Below are positions 5,194-34,762 of a stretch of 64,000 nucleotides of DNA, one piece after another. The stretch comes from a virus: the UHGV virus genome UHGV-0139776. One strand, written 5' to 3'. The position numbers were made by a program, and so were the translations under genes. Each line of letters starts with the position of its first letter. The first letter of the stretch is position 1. A model generated the notes under the pieces. It was given only the letters and a program-made list of their open reading frames with translations. It was not told where the DNA came from and did not search any database.

Positions 5194-8100
5194 TCAACTC
5201 TCGCGTAGTCATTCATCAACGGATCATCAATTGACAGTGGTACCGTGCGCATAACGCCCGGCTGAGGCGTGCTGACCTTTACGACAGTTCCCTGGCCTTT
5301 CGCCGAGTCTTTGGTGTGCTCTTCAATCCTGGCAAGCAATGAGGTCATCTGCGCAAACAGCCGCTTCGTTTCACCATCAAGTGAAACGGTATTATCAGCC
5401 AACTGCATTGTCGGCTTGGCACCGGAACCGCCAAGGTCACTAATAACCTGCCCGTCTATCTGCATACGACCGGTTGGTTGCTGCAAATCGTTGGCGGCAG
5501 TCGTCACCTGGGACGTGGAGGCTGGTTCAGGCGCATTATTTTTCCGCATCCCCGGCGAGTTGCGGAGTTTATCGAATAGTCCATCAATCCCCATTTGTGC
5601 GCCGAGTTGGTCAAAGTAACTTGAGTTGCTGGCCACCGGACGCGCCTCTTCAACTGGCATCGGAGTATCAACATACACATTGCCAGCTGCTGTTGCGGTC
5701 CCCTTCCCTCGTGCACGTTCTTCGAGCGTTCCCTGAACGACTTCCCGACGCATACCCCGGCCATTCATGAATTTGTTGACCAGATCGTTAACGCCAACAG
5801 CATTGCCGATTTTGTCTACCAGACCGCCTTTCTCAAACGGGCTATCACCAGGGGTAAACGCCAGACCAGTAGACTGATCGATAACGGCGTTATCAGGCAG
5901 TTGTCCCCTCACTCCATATTGCGCCCCACCCTGTGCTCCTGCCCCAGGTGTATAGATTTCACCACCTAAATAGCGAGCACGATGAGTATTGACCTTGATC
6001 GCGTACTCACGGTTTTCCTTCGATAAGTCACCGGTGCCTTTTTTCCACTTATTAATAGTGCCAAACCCAGCGTTATATGCAGTGATGGCCTCGTTTAAGT
6101 CTCCATTGGCTTGCTTCAGATACTTGCTCATGAGAAGAGCCGCAGCTTCTGCCGATTTCACAGGATCAAACGATTCACCTTCAGCTAAGCCAGTCTCTTC
6201 ACGAGCAATGCCCGTGAACTGAAACATTCCTAGAGCACCAGTTTGGGATTTTGCGTATGGATTACCACCAGATTCAGTTGCAGCAATCGCGTAAAGAGTG
6301 CCTTCAGGAAGACCATATTTATTCTCTAGTTCAGCAAAATACGGAGCTAACTTATCGAGATTTGCCTTACCTTCAGCGCCAAGGCTTCCGACTTTTACAT
6401 CTAAGTTGCCATTATTGTAGGTATCAGCAGCTTTCTGAATGTCATTCCCAGTGCCGGTGGTATTACGCGACGATGATGACGAGCTATTTTGTCCAATAGC
6501 TGAATCAATTTTCCGCACCGCGCTATTGCCCGTTTCTACGGCATTTGCATTGATAATCTGATTGGCAGTTTCTTTAACTGTTTTATTGCTATCTTTCGCC
6601 GTGTCCAGTGCCGCATTTATCACGCGGGTAGCAATATTAGTCTGTTTAGCATCGGATTCAGTTTTAGAATCAGATGTCTCCTGGTGGCTATTAACCGGAG
6701 CTTTTAACTCTGGAGTGATTTCTTTTGCATTAGCCTCGCCGATCGGATTGGGTATTTTTGATACAATCATTGCCGCTGGGGTATTTTTAACGGCATCAAC
6801 CGCTGCATCTAATGCTTTACCGGGTAAATTTTTAACCCCATCCCAAATATTACCAGCCGCCTCTTTAATGTGTTTCCCTGGGTTCTTAATGAAGTCAATT
6901 GCACTATCAATTGCATCACTGAAAACCTGTTTCAGGTTATCGACAGTAAAGAAGTCTTTTATGGCATCCAGCTTTTCAAGCAACTTATTAGATGTATCGC
7001 TAAACCATGCTGAAACAGCATCACCAATCTTTGCTGTGTAATCATCGAACTTGGTAGAAATGGTGTCGCCAAGGTTAGAAATATATGTTTCTAAGTTGGT
7101 AACCCCGCTATCAATGGCCTGGGCAATACTTTCCGTCGAAAATGATTGCAACATATTGCCGATATCCTCAAATCCAAGTGATTTGAGAACATCACCAATA
7201 GCACTGCTAATACCAGATACCAGTCCCCCCAAATCAAGAACATTGGCTAACGTATAAGCGGCTTTTTGCTGGAATGATGGATCTTGTCCTGATTTAAGCC
7301 CAAACGCTCGACGTTGCGCTTCTGTATCATTCCAACCGGTTACCGCATCATAAATACCTCCAGCCACTGTGCCGACTAGGGGAATTGCGCGTAACGCCCC
7401 TTTACCAACTGCCTTTAATCCAAGTTTACCTGCTGCCCGGGCAGCCAAATCTCCGCCTTCATGAGCGAGAGTCTTCTTGCCACCACCGCGTAGCATTCCT
7501 ACAAGTTTCTTTGCCCCCAGAGCGCCAAAAGCGAGTGCTCCAGCTTTTTTCAGCATGCCACGCCCCATTAACAACGACGCGACGCCACCGGCCCCCTTCC
7601 CTAACAGGCTAAATAGTTTGGACAGCAAGCCGCCCTTCTTTTTACCGGTGTTTTTGGCTATCTGATCAAGGGCGCGGAGAATCTTGTCATTGCCCTCTTT
7701 AATTTCGCTGGTCTGCTCCTGAAGTTCCTGAACCGTCCGTTTTTGGGTGTTAACCTGAACGACATCGGCACTATTTTGCGATTTACGCCTAAAAAAACCT
7801 TTTCTACGGCTGTTATCGTCATTGCCACGAATCACATCGGCAATAGACTTTCTGGCACCATTAAGCGATCCACCAACTTCTTTTGATATCCCGCCAAGCT
7901 CCTTCCCTGCTGCCCACAATGGACCAGCAACGGCATAACCTAACGCATCGACGGCACGAGTCTCTGAAGGGTTACCTATGCCTTCAGCTACTTTTGACAG
8001 TTTTTTTAATAAACCTGATTCAGCATTTAGACGCTCATCATCCTCTTTGCGCCTAGCCTTTTCAGCACGTTCAGCACGGGCATCTTCCGCTGCGGCCTTA

Positions 8101-12108: not shown

Positions 12109-12295
12109 GTATTTTTAAGTCGCGAATGCTATCTTTTCGCATCATATTGACCTTTTAATCGTTCAGGCTTATAGTTCCGCCGTCGTAGCAAATTCTGCGA
12201 CCGGGTTTAGCAGCCTGAATGATTGTGCGGACAGCCGCAGATATCCGATATTGCGGTATTTTTGTGTCCGTAAAACCGCGTTACGCCCAAATTAT

Positions 12296-12372
12296 GGTGG
12301 GGCGTGATGGGGAGGCTTCGGCCTGCTGGTTTCACAATCGCCAGTCTGCTAACCCCGTCACGTCCTGCCACC
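12296..12372 (+). ncRNA. c4: candidate c4 antisense RNA (immunity I)
   Basis: Segment containing CACAATC and CTGCTAA, complementary to the repeated GATTGTG / TTAGCAG elements at 12205-12227 and 12373-12414 (the latter overlapping the icd RBS). Boundaries are approximate. Confidence 0.4.
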
Positions 12373-12422
12373 TGTTTAGCAGCGGGTAGCAGGTTGTTAA
12401 ACCTGATTGTGAGGCCGTAACT

Positions 12423-15819: not shown

Positions 15820-16230
15820 TACAATCGTTGCGGGTGCTTGAGGCTATCTGCTTCAGGCATTACCCGAAAAGCAGATAGAAGAAAGCCCCAGATAACATTA
15901 CGCGTCCTGCAAGACGCTTAACATTAATCTGAGGCCATATCTATGCTTAGCATACGTAGATTAGCCTCTTACCGACCAAAAGGTCAAGGAGAAGCAGGCT
16001 ATGAAGCAGCAAAAAGCGATGTTAATCGCTCTGATCGTCATCTGTTTAACCGTCATTGTGACGGCACTGGTAACGAGGAAAGACCTCTGCGAGGTACGAA
16101 TCCGAACCGGCCAGACGGAGGTCACTGTCTTCACAGCCTACGAATCTGAAAGGTAAGAGACCTGGCGGGGAGAGATCCTCGCCACTCTTCGTGTGTCAGG
16201 TATCCTCAATGCACCCTTTCCTCTCCAAAT

Positions 16231-29682: not shown

Positions 29683-31943
29683 AAGAGCTGTGCTATGGAT
29701 CTGTTTGCAGTGGAATTGAAGCCGCGAGTATTGCCTGGGAACCGTTGGGTATGCGTCCGGCGTGGTTTGCTGAAATCGAGCCTTTTCCATCTGCCGTTCT
29801 TGCGCACCGCTGGCCCCATGTCGCCAACCTTGGCGACATGACAAAACTTGCCAAAAAAGTCCTGGCTGGGGAAATCGAATCCCCTGATGTGCTCGTCGGG
29901 GGAACACCTTGTCAGGCATTCAGTATCGCGGGCTTACGTGGTGGGCTTGATGATGAACGCGGCGCGCTAACTTTGAAGTATGTGGAGCTTGCAAATGCAA
30001 TTGACGACAAACGGTCTGAGTCCTTCCTCAAACCGACAGTTATCGTCTGGGAAAATGTCCCAGGAGTCCTGTCATCGGCAGATAACGCCTTCGGATGTTT
30101 CCTTGCCGGATTGGCTGGAGAAGATGCGCCATTTGAACCAGGTGATCGACCTGAATCAGGAAAAAGTAACGCGTTCTGGCGGTGGGATGGCAAAACCGGT
30201 TGCCATGCTCCAAAGTGGCCGCAGTGTGGTTGTATTTATGGACCGCAGCGAAAGGTGGCCTGGAGAATCCTTGATGCCCAATACTTCGGAGTGGCACAAC
30301 GACGCCGACGCGTGTTTGTTGTCGCAAGTGCTCGAACAGACCTCGATCCCGCAACGGTACTTTTTGAGTTCGAAGGCGTGCGCCGGGATATTGCGCCGAG
30401 CCGAAAAAAGAAGGAAATCGCTTCCGCCATTATTGCAAATGGCGCTGCAATCAGTGGCGAAAGCCTAAATCCATGCCTACACGCTGACATTCCACCCGGT
30501 ATGAAATCGACGAAAGCCGTAAACGCTTTCAGGATGGCAGCATTTGGGGAATATATTGACGATGAAACCGCATCGACAGTAAAGGCAAGAGATTTTAAAG
30601 ATGCCACTGACCTTGCCGTTTTTAGCAGCACAGGAGCAGGTTTTTGGTCAGAAGGGCATGGTACATTGCGGGCACGTGAGCAAGAAAGCCATGAGCATCT
30701 TGTTACATTGGCTTTTCCTGAGCGTATGAGCGGTACACAACATGCTGCAACTAAGAATACTTCACCATCTCTAATGGCTAAAAATCCAACAGCTGTTTGC
30801 TATGAAGTAAGAAACGCAGAAGTAGCTGTCCGCCGTCTTACCCCTGTCGAATGTGAAAGGCTGCAAGGTTTTCCTGATGGGCATACGTTGATCCCGACGG
30901 AAAAGCGTAAAAAAGTTAATTCAGATGAACTGGCATATCTTCGCAATCACTATCCAGATTTAAGCGAAGAAGAGGCCGCGATGCTTGCAGCTGACGGACC
31001 GCGTTACAAAGCGATCGGCAATAGTATGGCAATACCAGTAATGCGCTGGATTGGCGATCGGATTACTAAGGCCGTATGTCGGCAGAAAGAAGGAAGTAAA
31101 ACAAAAGAGCGAAAAGTTAAACCAGCGGCAGAATTCGAACGGTCCATATTCAAATGGGCTGGTGGAAAATTTGGTGTTCTGGAACAAATCTTTCGCTATT
31201 TGCCAGAAGGGAAGCGCCTGATTGAACCTTTCGTTGGTGGCGGAGCTGTCTTCATGAATGCCGGATACCAGGAAAATCTGCTAAATGATGTGAATGCTGA
31301 CCTGATTAACTTTTACAAGACTCTGCAACGCGAGGCGCATTCACTTATCACTCTGGCACATCGTTTCTTCCAGGACTACAACACACAGGAAGGATACCTG
31401 GCAGTACGGAATGCGTTTAACAAACAAGTCTATGATGATTTACATCGCGCAGCGGCGTTTTTGTTCCTGAACCGACATTGTTTTAACGGATTGACGCGTT
31501 ACAACCAGGCCGGTGAGTTCAATGTCGGTTATGGGAAGTATAAAACTCCGTATTTCCCATTACAGGAGATGGAAGCCTTCCTCGGTGCGGAAGGGCGGTC
31601 TGAGTTTGTATGCGGTGATTTTGCAGTGGTGATTGAAGCTGCCGGAGAAGGAGATGTCATCTTTTGCGATCCGCCGTATGAACCGCTTCCAAATACAGAG
31701 GGATTCACGAACTATTCCGGTCATGACTTTAAGTTTGAAGAGCAAAAACGCCTGGTGTCTCTGTTGACGGATGCTCATCGTCGAGGTGCAAAGGTTCTCA
31801 TTACTAACAGTGGCGCGCCAAATATCAGAGAGCTTTATCATGACAGTGGCTTCAGAGTGGAACCTCTTTTTGCCAGACGTTCTGTGTCTTGTAAGGGGGA
31901 CACTCGAGGTGTAGCTCATGACGTTTTAGGTATATTGCTCTAA
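29679..31943 (+). CDS. dmt: bifunctional DNA methyltransferase: N-terminal C5-cytosine MTase fused to C-terminal Dam-like N6-adenine MTase, 754 aa
   Basis: C5 motifs: GGTPCQAFS (IV), ENVPGVL (VI), QRRRRVFVV (VIII); Dam motifs: KWAGGK and CDPPYEP. Confidence 0.85.
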
Positions 31944-31964
31944 TAAATTTATTAGTGTAATATC
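31934..31964 (+). promoter_or_regulatory. perfect C1 operator (ATTGCTCTAATAAATTT) overlapping a near-consensus promoter (TTGCTC-N17-TAATAT)
   Basis: 17/17 operator match; -35 and -10 hexamers with 17-nt spacing. Confidence 0.65.
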
Positions 31965-31970
31965 GCCTCA

Positions 31971-32151
31971 ATGAATCGTGATTTATAGAGCGATTTAGCT
32001 GTTAGCCGCGACAGGCGCGGCGGTAAGCATGGCTGGGCCTAGTCCTCCCAGACAAACCACCGAGTTGCCAGGTTGACCATGCGCCTAAGTGGCAACTCCG
32101 AAGTGCGTTACGAGCTTCCAGTTTGCCCATCTTCGGGTGGGCGTTTTTTTT
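31971..32151 (+). ncRNA. candidate small RNA or leader transcript: promoter to UUCG-tetraloop terminator with no credible ORF
   Basis: Longest ATG-initiated ORFs that stop before the terminator encode 5 and 15 aa; bounded by the promoter at 31936-31964 and the terminator at 32125-32151. Confidence 0.3.
32125..32151 (+). terminator. rho-independent terminator (7-bp stem, UUCG loop, T8 run)
   Basis: GCCCATC-TTCG-GGTGGGC followed by GTTTTTTTT. Confidence 0.75.
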
Positions 32152-32327
32152 CAGGGTTTTCGTCATGGTTAGCGACTTTGCGGCGGTTTAGAAACTGACC
32201 ATTAAAGTAAATGCAAACGATGATCTGATGATGGTAGCGGCCTAAGAAGCCAGACGCCACGGGGTATGAGTCGTCCCCCGTCAAAAAATCGACCGCAGAG
32301 TGTCCCCGTCTGTGTATTAGGGAACGG

Positions 32328-32425
32328 GGAGACACAACAGGTAAGGGCGCTGGTGTGATTAACCAGATGAACGAGAAGGGGCCATCTGTTGGTCAGCGTC
32401 CTTTCCTGTTGCGTTTTCTTTTCAG
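32328..32425 (+). repeat. long imperfect hairpin, unit 0 of the ACAACAGGTAAGGG...CCTTTCCTGTTG family
   Basis: 5-prime arm CAACAGGTAAGGGCGCTGG pairs with TCAGCGTCCTTTCCTGTTG; followed by a T-rich tract. Confidence 0.5.
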
Positions 32426-32616
32426 CGTAACAGCGGTGCTTAACAGCACTTTGGGTACAGTTCCACGAATTTACGGGTATATCCCGTCATGCTGAAAGCG
32501 CTAATCACGCTGGAAGCCAGGGTTATGCATCCCCTGTTACCGAATTGCAGCCAGGGCGCGGTGCGCCGAAAAGCATACGGAGGTGGAAGCCCTCGCCGGA
32601 GACGTGCCCGGCAAGT

Positions 32617-32692
32617 GATGGTGTAGCTCAGCGGTTAGAGCGGTTGACTGTTAATCAACGGGTCGATGGTTCAAATCCATCCACCATCGCCA
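32617..32692 (+). tRNA. tRNA-Asn (anticodon GUU)
   Basis: Cloverleaf: acceptor GATGGTG/CACCATC, anticodon loop CUGUUAA, T-arm GGTTCAAATCC, encoded CCA. Confidence 0.85.
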
Positions 32693-32694
32693 AT

Positions 32695-32770
32695 GCCGGT
32701 TTAGCTCAGTTGGTAGAGCGCCTGCCTTGTAAGCAGGATGTCAGCGGTTCGAGTCCGTTAATCGGCACCA
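32695..32770 (+). tRNA. tRNA-Thr (anticodon UGU)
   Basis: Acceptor GCCGGTT/AATCGGC, anticodon loop CUUGUAA, T-arm GGTTCGAGTCC, encoded CCA. Confidence 0.85.
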
Positions 32771-33575
32771 GCACAACAGGTAAGGGTATTTTGCGACGTC
32801 GGAGATCGCCGAGCTTGGCAGAGGGTTCGAATCCCTACGAAGTACCCTTACCGTTGTGATGAATGCGCAGGCTGATGCGCGAAAGACATTGCAGCTATTG
32901 CGGAAAAGAGCTGTTCGGCGGGGCAATTAAACGCCCGTGAGAGTCTGAAATAACCGCAAGCCGGAGATCAGCACCGGTCATCACAACACAACAGGTAAGG
33001 GCATTCTCCCTTATGGGGCTTGGCTTAAATGCATCGAGTGCTCTTACCGTTGTGATGAAGTGCAGCTCTTTGAAGCAACCAGAAGATAAGCATCTGGCTT
33101 CACAACATAAACCGCAGGAACGACCAATAAACGGTAGTCCGTATGGAGAACACCCCGTTGAGGAAGAGGCCTGGCCGGAACCGTAACCGGCACTACAACG
33201 TTGAGAACACTGGCGTAACGGGGTCATATCCCAATCTACGAATAAATGTTGCGTTGCAGCGTGACAACCAGTGTTCTCAACATTGTGGTGAATGCACAGG
33301 CTGATGTGCCGCAACTACAGTAGTGCGCGCTTTGCGGGGCTTGCTACAACCCTGTGTCGGAGTTCAGCACCGACCATCACAGTTTGATTCTCTGGCATGA
33401 GCATAACGCTGAAATAAGTCCAGTCTGGTGCGGCCCGATCACCCGCCGTTAGCTCCACGAAACGGAGCACGTAACAGGTAAGAGCATTCTCCTGTAACGG
33501 GTTCATATCCCAATCTACAGGTCCACCAGGAATGCTCTTTCCGTTGCGGTGAATGCGGCTAAGCGCACGCGGAAC
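32771..33575 (+). repeat. array of four structured hairpin units (about 32776-32880, 32990-33066, 33194-33312, 33470-33572), each a long stem plus GTTGTGATGAATGC-type tail and short hairpin
   Basis: Conserved stem bases ACAACAGGTAAGRG / CTTACCGTTGTG, variable interiors, compensatory changes in the 3-prime mini-hairpin (GCGCA..TGCGC versus GCACA..TGTGC); unit 1 contains a T-arm-like GGGTTCGAATCCC. Confidence 0.5.
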
Positions 33576-33697
33576 AGTTAAAACAATCCTCCTTAATGGT
33601 TAAACATTCCGACGTTAATTGTTAACTGGTTAACGTCACCGGGAGGCACTCGGCACCGCAATCTAATAAATATGTCACTTTTATTGAGGGATAACCA

Positions 33698-34132
33698 ATG
33701 TTCGGTAAATTGTTCGGCAAGAAAGTCGCTTCTGCAAAAGTAGAGCTGAAAAAAGTTGAGAATCGCGATCTGATGGAGGCCATCATCGGTGGCTGTTTGT
33801 TGGTGTCTGCCGCTGATGGTGAAATCGAAAAAGAAGAAACAGCGAAACTTGATCAGCTTGTCCGCTCTAATCCGCGTCTTAGTCATTTTGGTAACGAAAT
33901 TACTGCAACAATTACCCGCTTTACCGAGCAACTGGAAGCTGGCTTCCGTGTTGGTCGCATGAATATCCTTCGCGAAATTGAAGATATCAAAAACGATCCA
34001 AAAGAAGCGGAAGAAGTATTCGTTAACATGCTGACAATTGCAGAAGCGGACGGTGAAATCGAGCCAGCAGAACACAAAGTACTGGAAGAAGTAGGCCGTC
34101 GTTTAGGTCTTCGTGTGGAAGATTATCTGTAA
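33698..34132 (+). CDS. tciA: TerB-like protein, 144 aa
   Basis: TerB-like duplicated motif (AADGEIEKEE ... AEADGEIEPAE). Confidence 0.65.
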   Translation: MFGKLFGKKVASAKVELKKVENRDLMEAIIGGCLLVSAADGEIEKEETAKLDQLVRSNPRLSHFGNEITATITRFTEQLEAGFRVGRMNILREIEDIKNDPKEAEEVFVNMLTIAEADGEIEPAEHKVLEEVGRRLGLRVEDYL

Positions 34133-34482: not shown

Positions 34483-34762
34483 TATTTGGTTGTAACACGG
34501 CGTCTGGCACATGCGTCGTTAGCGGTCTGGTGACGTTAAAAGGGGGGAACCTTGCCCCTAGCTCAGGCAACGAACCAGGTAGCCGGAATGTGCAAGCCAC
34601 CGTTTGTTGTTTCTCGGGTAAAGGGATTCACCATCCTGGCGATTCGGTGTGACAGCCGGGAAGAGTCCGGCGCATTAATCCTGATTTTCTGGTGATGACT
34701 CATATCGTTAGGAGTGATTTGAGTATGCCGATTATATCTGACATTCAGCACGCCTGGGTGGA

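Follow-up and report, generated by a model that had tools for sequence, protein, structure and literature searches.

The viral genome UHGV-0139776 raises the question of what is done by the array of long, imperfect hairpins at positions 32,328–33,575. The window, that is to say, the whole stretch of 64,000 nucleotides (nt) that was analyzed, is a P1-like phage-plasmid, and the array sits within the long, nearly non-coding leader of its C1-controlled ban operon. Two module types alternate in the array; we designate the five long hairpins LH1 to LH5 (LH, long hairpin) and the four copies of the second module S1 to S4. The LH modules belong to a family of structured RNAs that is widespread in temperate enterobacterial phages and has gone unannotated. 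We put the probability at roughly 0.55 that the LH modules act as punctuation hairpins for RNase III in a stable-RNA operon of the phage and carry exchangeable tips, which partly imitate pieces of tRNA.

Structure of the five long hairpins

The five LH units all have the same orientation, as an earlier note made from the letters of the window had claimed. Their stems are 20–23 base pairs (bp) long, each with one bulge or mismatch, rather than the 9–19 bp given there. Folding of the + strand yielded −33.6 to −47.9 kcal/mol (z scores of −5.39 to −8.32), values that 0 of 200 dinucleotide shuffles of each unit equaled, and the + strand fold was more stable than the − strand fold by 6–10 kcal/mol in every LH unit. 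A repeat search bore out the shared arm sequences: the 5′ arm ACACAACAGGTAAGGGC occurs four times, the 3′ arm with its tail four times, and a 25-nt interior motif twice.

All five units lie on the + strand and differ at their apices. LH1 (32331–32415; −40.2 kcal/mol, z −5.39) ends in a further irregular helix with no recognized tRNA-like piece. LH2 (32771–32859; −41.6 kcal/mol, z −5.44) starts 1 nt past the CCA of tRNA-Thr and carries a T-arm-like hairpin AGGGTTCGAATCCCT (32822–32836) stacked on the stem; the T-arm-like sequence GGGTTCGAATCCC had been assigned to the first unit, and it is present in the second (32822–36). LH3 (32985–33056; −33.6 kcal/mol, z −5.94) has a homolog in the lambdoid Klebsiella phage 5 LV-2017 in which the apex sequence is conserved and the arms have changed in a compensatory manner. 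LH4 (33191–33290; −47.9 kcal/mol, z −8.32) is a three-way junction, in which the P2 arm ends in AC-GGG-GUCAUAU-CCC-AAUC (33218–33236, with CAU at 33225–33227) and a P3 hairpin occupies approximately 33246–33266. LH5 (33468–33551; −35.0 kcal/mol, z −6.33) has the P2 arm end AC-GGG-UUCAUAU-CCC-AAUC (33497–33515, with CAU at 33504–33506) and no P3. The shared interior motif GTAACGGGKTCATATCCCAATCTAC had been noticed and placed in units 3 and 4; it belongs to the fourth and fifth units, and its identity as the anticodon arm of tRNA-fMet (described below) had been missed.

We built a covariance model (R1) from 18 lambdoid-prophage elements only, none of them from P1-like phages, and ran it on the 64-kb window with filters off. 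The top five + strand matches were exactly LH1–LH5, and the next match had an E value of 0.3. LH4 (37.1 bits, E = 1.4e-8) and LH5 (45.6 bits, E = 3.6e-11) matched over the entire model; LH1 (25.3 bits, E = 5e-5), LH2 (E = 5e-3), and LH3 (E = 1.3e-2) matched through their basal arms only. The lambdoid LH geometry consists of a basal helix P1 of 21 positions, a 7-bp P2, the segment AC-GGG-NUCAUAN-CCC-AAUC, the P2 return, the variable hairpin P3, and the P1 return.

Selection on structure and the functional strand

To test covariation, we removed P3 from 46 distinct elements and aligned them without gaps. The analysis revealed that (i) paired cells amounted to 91.2%, compared with 78.0% after shuffling, a value reached by 0 of 500 shuffles; (ii) both sides had changed in 18 of the 31 pairs (153 cells versus 38.6 shuffled); (iii) the covariation score was 0.379, compared with 0.161 in shuffled alignments and at most 0.145 when the partners were slid; and (iv) the basal helix was constant at 21 positions over all 46 relatives. 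The LH structure is under selection, as had been argued from covariation within the array, and structure-preserving substitutions occur in the family across distant phages. Two parts behave differently: the three G-C pairs of the tip show no covariation, their sequence being fixed, and the upper stem AGAGCA/UGCUCU is conserved in sequence while the remainder covaries. In the model-based alignment, G-U pairs outnumber A-C pairs by 151 to 58, and 26 of the latter are one fixed C-A. This excess indicates that the functional RNA is the + strand; a function at the DNA level or on the minus strand would not yield such a bias.

The strand of the RNA bears on the annotation of the P1 reference, according to which the region encodes the minus-strand proteins Plp and Upl. 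Open reading frames (ORFs) of 139 and 63 codons do exist and are annotated in some records. As coding candidates, plp and upl were rejected: in-frame stops occur in Ro157c2YLVW; only 38–107 residues can be aligned in P7, D6, SJ46, and CMS-2020a, with breaks at the module borders; and upl is absent from P7, D6, and SJ46. A Pfam search assigned neither product to a family, and several recent annotations have dropped both genes. With the G-U bias also favoring the + strand, we regard this coding reading as extremely unlikely, in line with the earlier preference for a function at the RNA level over a protein.

The inverted repeats might instead act as DNA, in the form of cruciforms, protein-binding sites, or recombination sites for cassette exchange. 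Tips have been swapped between identical arms, which suggests recombination within the arms. However, G-U pairs exceed A-C pairs and stability differs between the strands, both of which indicate RNA, and the arm sequence diverges freely if pairing is kept, unlike a protein-binding or recombinase site. We give a DNA-level function very little credence.

The S modules and their overlap with LH

The tail GTGRTGAAKGC had been described as following units 1–4; it is present after units 2–5, and the first unit has none. The tail (GTGATGAATGC) and the short hairpin behind it, which shows the compensatory changes GCGCA/TGCGC versus GCACA/TGTGC as described, had been taken as part of each long hairpin. 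Folding revealed that they form the 5′ end of a separate module of 60–135 nt, S, which alternates with LH, so that two module types had been merged into one. In S, the helix GUUGUGRUG...CAYCACAAC closes the module, which contains a hairpin on the 5′ side, variable hairpins in the middle, and, adjoining the closing helix, a 3′ hairpin CCGG...CCGG.

All four copies lie on the + strand. S1 (32853–32987), recognized by its fold, has the closing helix GUUGUGAUG/CAUCACAAC, the 5′ hairpin GCGCAGGCTGATGCGC, and the 3′ hairpin CCGGAGATCAGCACCGG. Copies with 98% identity to S1 are found in many lambdoid phages just 3′ of the repressor gene, where the onward genes begin, a position that we take to be the early leftward (pL) operon. 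S2 (33049–33107) is short, has the closing helix GUUGUGA/UCACAAC, folds weakly by itself (z −0.76), and belongs to the direct-repeat families D1 and D3. S3 (33282–33385), supported by its fold and by the same repeat families, has the closing helix AUUGUGGUG/CAUCACAGU and a 5′ hairpin GCACAGGCTGATGTGC that is a compensatory variant of that of S1. S4 (33543–33662; z −3.1) lies directly 5′ of tciA and is near-identical to the element in the dicF-dicB spacer of the E. coli K-12 Qin prophage. S4 (33545–33660) matched the Rfam family STnc100 (RF02076) with 42 bits (E = 2.9e-7), below the gathering score of 47, as did its homologs in Qin (34.4 bits) and D6 (39.6 bits); the same Rfam search of the window gave no STnc100 match for S1, S2, or S3. 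The S modules are related to STnc100 in architecture and are not members by the Rfam criterion.

LH and S overlap. At the 3′ end of each of LH2–LH5, 6 nt (GUUGUG or a variant thereof) double as the start of the helix that closes the following S (32853–32858, 33049–33054, 33282–33287, and 33543–33548), and the 3′ partner CACAAC of S abuts the CACAAC of the next LH. The LH and S closing helices cannot both be complete because these 6 nt are shared; the mutually exclusive helices could reflect ordered folding or a switch.

Probable RNase III sites in the Qin homologs and a proposed mechanism

The best R1 match in the dicBF locus of Qin (L011) was a hairpin 5′ of dicF (L011 2172–2259, E = 1e-4). 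According to Ragunathan et al. (2023, bioRxiv 10.1101/2023.04.14.536235), formation of the 190-nt DicF precursor depends on RNase III, and positions 813 and 814 flank the 5′ end of this RNA. Counting 190 nt back from the DicF 3′ end (2435) leads to L011 2246, and counting 813 nt from an inferred start near 1438 (approximately 7 nt past a TTGACC-17-TAATCT promoter) leads to approximately L011 2250; both positions are in the 3′ arm of the Qin LH, near the middle of the basal helix. A 72-nt DicF likewise owes its 3′ end to RNase III (Balasubramanian et al. 2016, PMC5069750); this end maps to approximately L011 2454, on the 5′ side of the helix that closes S. A candidate RNase III site from an RNA sequencing (RNA-seq) screen, 1649470 (L011 2471), falls in the same Qin S element. 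Because the published Qin ends map inside LH and S helices, homologs of both module types appear to be cut by RNase III, at positions inferred from fragment lengths. Of the functions that had been offered for the array, with no choice made among them, processing sites are the best supported, through these mapped cuts.

For P1, we infer cleavage of LH by RNase III and release of the tips as follows. The LH copies would punctuate long, mostly untranslated phage transcripts, including the leader of the P1 ban operon and, in lambdoid phages, leaders 3′ of either the repressor or the late antiterminator gene. The constant part, a basal helix of approximately 21 bp that usually has one central mismatch or bulge, would be cut near its middle by the host RNase III, so that the tRNA or small RNA upstream would be freed on its 3′ side and parted from the RNA downstream; the S closing helix would serve as a second RNase III site. 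The predicted products of the leader are tRNAs, S-derived small RNAs, hairpin tips, and the tciA-ban mRNA. The LH apex would be an exchangeable cargo (in LH4 and LH5 the copy of the initiator anticodon stem-loop, in LH2 the T-arm), and the cleaved tips may be released as tRNA-sized RNAs of 60–75 nt.

Several points weigh against this reading: (i) cleavage in P1 itself is predicted from the Qin homologs; (ii) the mapping of the Qin sites uses published fragment lengths and an inferred transcription start, not the coordinates of the authors, and the RNA-seq candidate is based on 26 reads only; (iii) the position of the bulge or mismatch in the basal helix differs between P1-type and lambdoid-type elements; (iv) the conservation of the upper stem AGAGCA/UGCUCU suggests a sequence-specific partner, beyond plain recognition by RNase III; (v) complete LH and S helices are mutually exclusive owing to their 6-nt overlap; and (vi) conservation of the anticodon-like motif is partly imposed, because many of the aligned sequences were retrieved by that motif, and it is precisely missing from one relative. 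When the 3′ arm alone was used for retrieval, 113 of 123 elements had the exact motif and the others had single changes.

The conserved upper stem also enters an alternative in which the dense structure shields the 1.7-kb leader from Rho-dependent termination and decay, with UGCUCUU perhaps a boxA-like site for Nus factors as in rRNA operons. No ORF is conserved in the leader between the ban promoters and tciA, and the 3′ arms UGCUCUUA or UGCUCUUU resemble the first 8 nt of the known boxA sequence in a part of the stem that keeps its sequence while the rest covaries. However, no arm comes within 3 mismatches of the 13-nt rrn boxA TGCTCTTTAACAA, to which the window has 27 matches against 22.9 expected, i.e., a chance level, and the bases that resemble boxA are paired within a stable helix. 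A shielding role against Rho would also leave the fixed helix length and the tRNA-like tips unexplained. We consider this alternative improbable.

The tips and the initiator tRNA

At least 8 different tips are found on identical basal arms among related elements; the scaffold of basal arms stays constant and its tips can be exchanged. T-loop hairpins are part of two tip types, AGGG-UUCGAAU-CCCU in the window and GUAGAG-UUCGACU-CUCUAC elsewhere. In LH4 and LH5, three G-C pairs close a 7-nt loop with U33, CAU, and A37, which is the hallmark of the initiator tRNA and is absent from LH1–LH3. The anticodon arm of E. coli metY (TCGGGCTCATAACCCGA) and the lambdoid elements (ACGGGCTCATAACCCAA) share the 14-nt identity CGGGCTCATAACCC; the P1 versions read ACGGG(G/T)TCATATCCCAA. 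Across phage groups, only loop positions 32 and 38 (tRNA numbering) vary, and U33, CAU, A37, and the three G-C pairs are constant. The copy in LH4 and LH5 is initiator-specific, because the tRNA-Ile(CAU) of the phage itself has a different anticodon stem and the elongator tRNA-Met likewise lacks the three G-C pairs. The tRNA link that had been suspected for the array thus takes the form of a copy of the initiator anticodon stem-loop in two units, a T-arm in one, and LH units that abut a tRNA 3′ end. The mimic of the initiator anticodon arm and the cassette-like behavior of the tips are the unexpected parts of the family. Full-text literature searches with the motif sequence and for a phage mimic of the initiator anticodon, in a scope outside of which the P1 genome paper and Faubladier and Bouche (1994) lay, gave no prior description.

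Natural variants of this tip exist. In Ro157c2YLVW (L004 2607–2677), the LH5 homolog has lost exactly the 13-nt GGGTTCATATCCC hairpin (GTAAC|AATCTAC) with the rest intact, and it is a natural deletion mutant of the anticodon-like tip. The e14 element of K-12 has AAU in place of CAU. A GC-rich phage contig (L167) carries the same 21 nt on another scaffold, approximately 250 nt 5′ of a tRNA gene. We also observed a small hairpin GCCGGAACCGTAACCGGC 5′ of anticodon-type LHs, at 33166–33190 of the window and in an unrelated phage group (L235 10645–10668 and L187 approximately 5265–5285); because it precedes anticodon-type LHs in two unrelated groups, the conserved composite may exceed the hairpin alone.

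The tips may themselves be the main function, that is to say, tRNA fragments that act as decoys or competitors, for example of VapC-type anticodon-loop nucleases, in an array that is a counter-defense locus and in which RNase III merely releases them. The 14-nt identity to metY and the conservation typical of an anticodon loop (32 and 38 free, U33-CAU-A37 fixed) fit such a role, as do the T-loop hairpins in two other cargo types and the occurrence of the motif on the different scaffold of the GC-rich contig. The neighboring phage tRNAs include tRNA-Asn and, in relatives, tRNA-Tyr, both of which are targets of colicin E5. A decoy role is testable because enteric VapC (of Salmonella and Shigella) cleaves exactly the anticodon stem-loop of tRNA-fMet, and it accepts similar structures in other RNAs (review PMC7180214). 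On the other side, 3 of the 5 LH units and most cargo types have no recognizable tRNA piece, a conserved AC/AAUC internal loop replaces two base pairs above the GGG/CCC of tRNA-fMet, and the hairpin is precisely deleted in one P1-like phage and reads AAU, not CAU, in e14. A link to a nuclease was not found for any tip. We regard a decoy as the main function as possible though doubtful. A U-turn loop for RNA–RNA pairing is an alternative reading of the anticodon-like tip.

A wider proposal, which we offer tentatively and would not expect to hold in full, joins both ideas: the arrays would consist of hairpin-scaffolded RNA cassettes released by RNase III, with tRNA-fragment tips as decoys or inhibitors of tRNA-targeting proteins (VapC-type) or of the initiation machinery. 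Together with the phage tRNAs and a module resembling the message part of transfer-messenger RNA (tmRNA; described below), they might form an RNA-only counter-defense island in approximately half of the E. coli genomes.

Distribution of the LH family

The survey across genera covered viral contigs, plasmids, and E. coli genomes. BLAST with one lambdoid LH element found it in 2809 of 5426 complete E. coli genomes, where it is never annotated as RNA and at times is called "hypothetical protein" or ymfH. The P1-type array is present in 1025 plasmids of Escherichia, Klebsiella, Salmonella, and others. Each scan of viral contigs gave matches to the LH arms and to the interior motif among the matches listed. 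A 16-base pattern of the 3′ arm gave almost only chance matches, from unrelated phyla, in genome contigs, and Rfam 15 contained no family for LH at either gathering or permissive thresholds, returning only chance matches of the microRNA type.

The position of LH relative to other RNAs is regular. In lambdoid prophages, LH comes directly after the terminator of a DicF-like small RNA. In related contigs, LH begins 1–2 nt after the CCA of the last tRNA of the cluster, in 108 of 111 cases with tRNA-Thr(UGU) and 38 of 39 with tRNA-Ser(UGA). In D6 and P7, a tRNA-Ser is located between the S module and LH; from these counts and positions, the general order is therefore S, an optional tRNA, and LH, repeated. 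The tRNA-Ser(UGA) is one of several extra tRNAs in the arrays of relatives (D6, L005 2307–2393; P7, L006 2317–2403; Ro157c2YLVW, L004 1797–1883): it is 87 nt long and scores 43 bits on the Rfam tRNA-Sec model (gathering score of 47). A tRNA-Tyr(GUA) is another, and some contigs have a tRNA-Arg(UCU) instead; the tRNA set of the island is variable.

Whole units also differ among relatives, and both the P1 reference and D6 are without one LH-S pair, which fits gain and loss of units by recombination between repeated arms. These differences have been weighed as signs that the array is a relic without function, left by tRNA genes and by repeated recombination in a tRNA island and retained only since the region is young. 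Some tips do hold tRNA-like pieces, and the long direct repeats could drive changes in copy number. However, the architecture is kept with many compensatory changes across P1-like, lambdoid, and other phages, and it is present in the thousands of genomes and plasmids counted above. ARAGORN found only three true tRNAs in the window and none on the LH units, tmRNA detection likewise gave nothing on them, and the Rfam tRNA model (RF00005), at E values up to 10, matched no LH unit or lambdoid relative. Because no tRNA model matches and the scaffold covaries across distant phages, the LH units are not the decaying tRNA relics that the earlier note had offered as one option; covariation disfavors the wider reading of the array as remains, which we hold to be quite unlikely.

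In E. coli K-12, the ymfH ORF of e14 (L242 3070–3381) covers three elements of its own strand, namely an S module, a DicF-like small RNA together with its terminator, and an LH-family hairpin. Overexpression of ymfH reportedly triggers the retron-Sen2 toxin RcaT (bioRxiv 10.1101/2020.06.22.160242); this trigger might be due to the LH, S, or DicF-like RNAs and not to a protein.

The ban-operon leader and its neighboring features

The array region is 97–99.9% identical to P1, JL22, RCS47, and P7. In the P1 reference, the C1-controlled promoters P1ban and P2ban directly follow dmt, and the genes from these promoters to ban are all on the + strand except the plp/upl ORFs. The order there is the "dicF-like region", tRNA-Asn, tRNA-Thr, approximately 900 nt with only the minus-strand plp/upl, tciA, tciB, tciC, tRNA-Ile(CAU), and ban. 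P1 annotation was transferred to the window with a locus offset of +30599, which places P1ban/P2ban and their predicted transcript start at 31918–31963 (+), where the C1 operator ATTGCTCTAATAAATTT was read in the sequence. The "dicF-like region" (32058–32159, +) resembles the Qin segment upstream of dicF and ends in an intrinsic terminator hairpin (32121–32152). The tRNAs are tRNA-Asn(GUU) at 32617–32692 and tRNA-Thr(UGU) at 32695–32770, both on the + strand (ARAGORN; 74.5 and 72.9 bits on the Rfam tRNA model). The first protein gene 3′ of the RNA array is tciA (33698–34132, +), an ORF whose product belongs to the TerB family (Pfam, E = 2e-14). The orientation of LH agrees with the annotated ban promoters and with the tRNA, tci, and ban genes. 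A scan of the + strand for intrinsic terminators found, besides the one 5′ of the array, only 33778–33794, inside tciA, and none after any LH unit.

Other RNA features lie nearby. At 32139–32245 is the tmRNA-message-like module, in which the tag frame (32213–32245) reads GCA AAC GAT GAT CTG ATG ATG GTA GCG GCC TAA, i.e., ANDDLMMVAA*, and has no in-frame start codon downstream of the preceding TAG. It matches the message part of tmRNA models weakly (26 bits; gathering score of 47) and is kept in approximately 90 P1-like contigs. A second phage group has ANDDVVLMAA* with other codons and its own promoter, and there too the stop codon is in a hairpin loop. No tRNA-like domain was detected with the module, and in both phage groups a long LH-family hairpin follows directly. 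Right after tRNA-Ile(CAU) and 5′ of ban, 34483–34560 (TATTTGGTTGTAACACGGCGTCTGGCACATGCGTCGTTAGCGGTCTGG...) is shared with a non-coding stretch downstream of the repressor gene of mEp460 (L003 2745–2815), and it represents a further non-coding module in both P1-like and lambdoid phages. Elsewhere in the window, C4 antisense RNA with its a1/b1 targets and the sok antitoxin RNA (12169–12375 and 15832–16006) score above the Rfam threshold; these are known P1 RNA genes and ordinary for a P1-like element.

Significance and comparison with known systems

If the punctuation reading is true, the "hypothetical proteins" plp, upl, and ymfH, or the blank stretches in their place, would be a structured RNA family in thousands of prophages and phage-plasmids. 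This would account for the way in which phages obtain tRNAs and small RNAs, DicF among them, out of long early transcripts, and for the region being a hotspot of modular exchange. The copy of the initiator anticodon arm would make a testable candidate for a new class of phage RNAs, one that mimics a part of the translation machinery. The R1 covariance model is ready for annotating LH elements.

In the bacterial Y RNA YrlA (RF02553), a long stem carries a T-arm/D-arm module, and the thrS operator contains a copy of an anticodon arm; in both, part of a tRNA is displayed atop a long helix, as in LH. The YrlA model did not match LH and gave only a chance match of 25.6 bits (gathering score of 69) over two true tRNAs. 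We know of no described mimic of the initiator anticodon arm.

The host RNase III stems of 16S/23S rRNA and of the metY-nusA-infB leader are double-stranded over approximately two helical turns, in many cases with a single internal irregularity, and are placed, like LH, beside tRNA or rRNA in a polycistronic transcript. The RNase III sites of the early region of phage T7 are stems of the same kind, and the rimP-metY site is in the RNA-seq list of RNase III sites. Unlike LH, the host and T7 stems lack conserved exchangeable apical domains and copies of tRNA fragments, and they have no sequence similarity to LH.

According to a recent preprint, STnc100 is related to the PasD small RNAs, with TerB genes nearby. 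The S module matches model positions 31–147 of STnc100, with agreement of the closing helix and of the 5′ and 3′ hairpins, and both sit in prophages beside TerB-family genes, tciA encoding a TerB protein. By contrast, the P1 S copies lack the 3′ terminator part of the STnc100 model, and the long hairpins are outside the STnc100 family. The tRNA of phage T5 that counters PARIS (PMC11455837) shares with LH the setting of a phage tRNA island and possibly a common purpose; the T5 tRNAs are complete and functional, whereas the LH units are not tRNAs by any model.

The RNase III sites of Qin dicBF (Faubladier et al. 1990; bioRxiv 10.1101/2023.04.14.536235; PMC5069750) are homologous modules in the same order around a stable RNA: LH lies 5′ of dicF, S occupies the dicF-dicB interval, and the published ends that depend on RNase III are located within these two. 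The sites were described there as single cleavage sites rather than as parts of a repeated family. A tRNA-like tip is absent from the Qin hairpin, and P1 carries an array of five LH and four S modules that flank tRNA genes.

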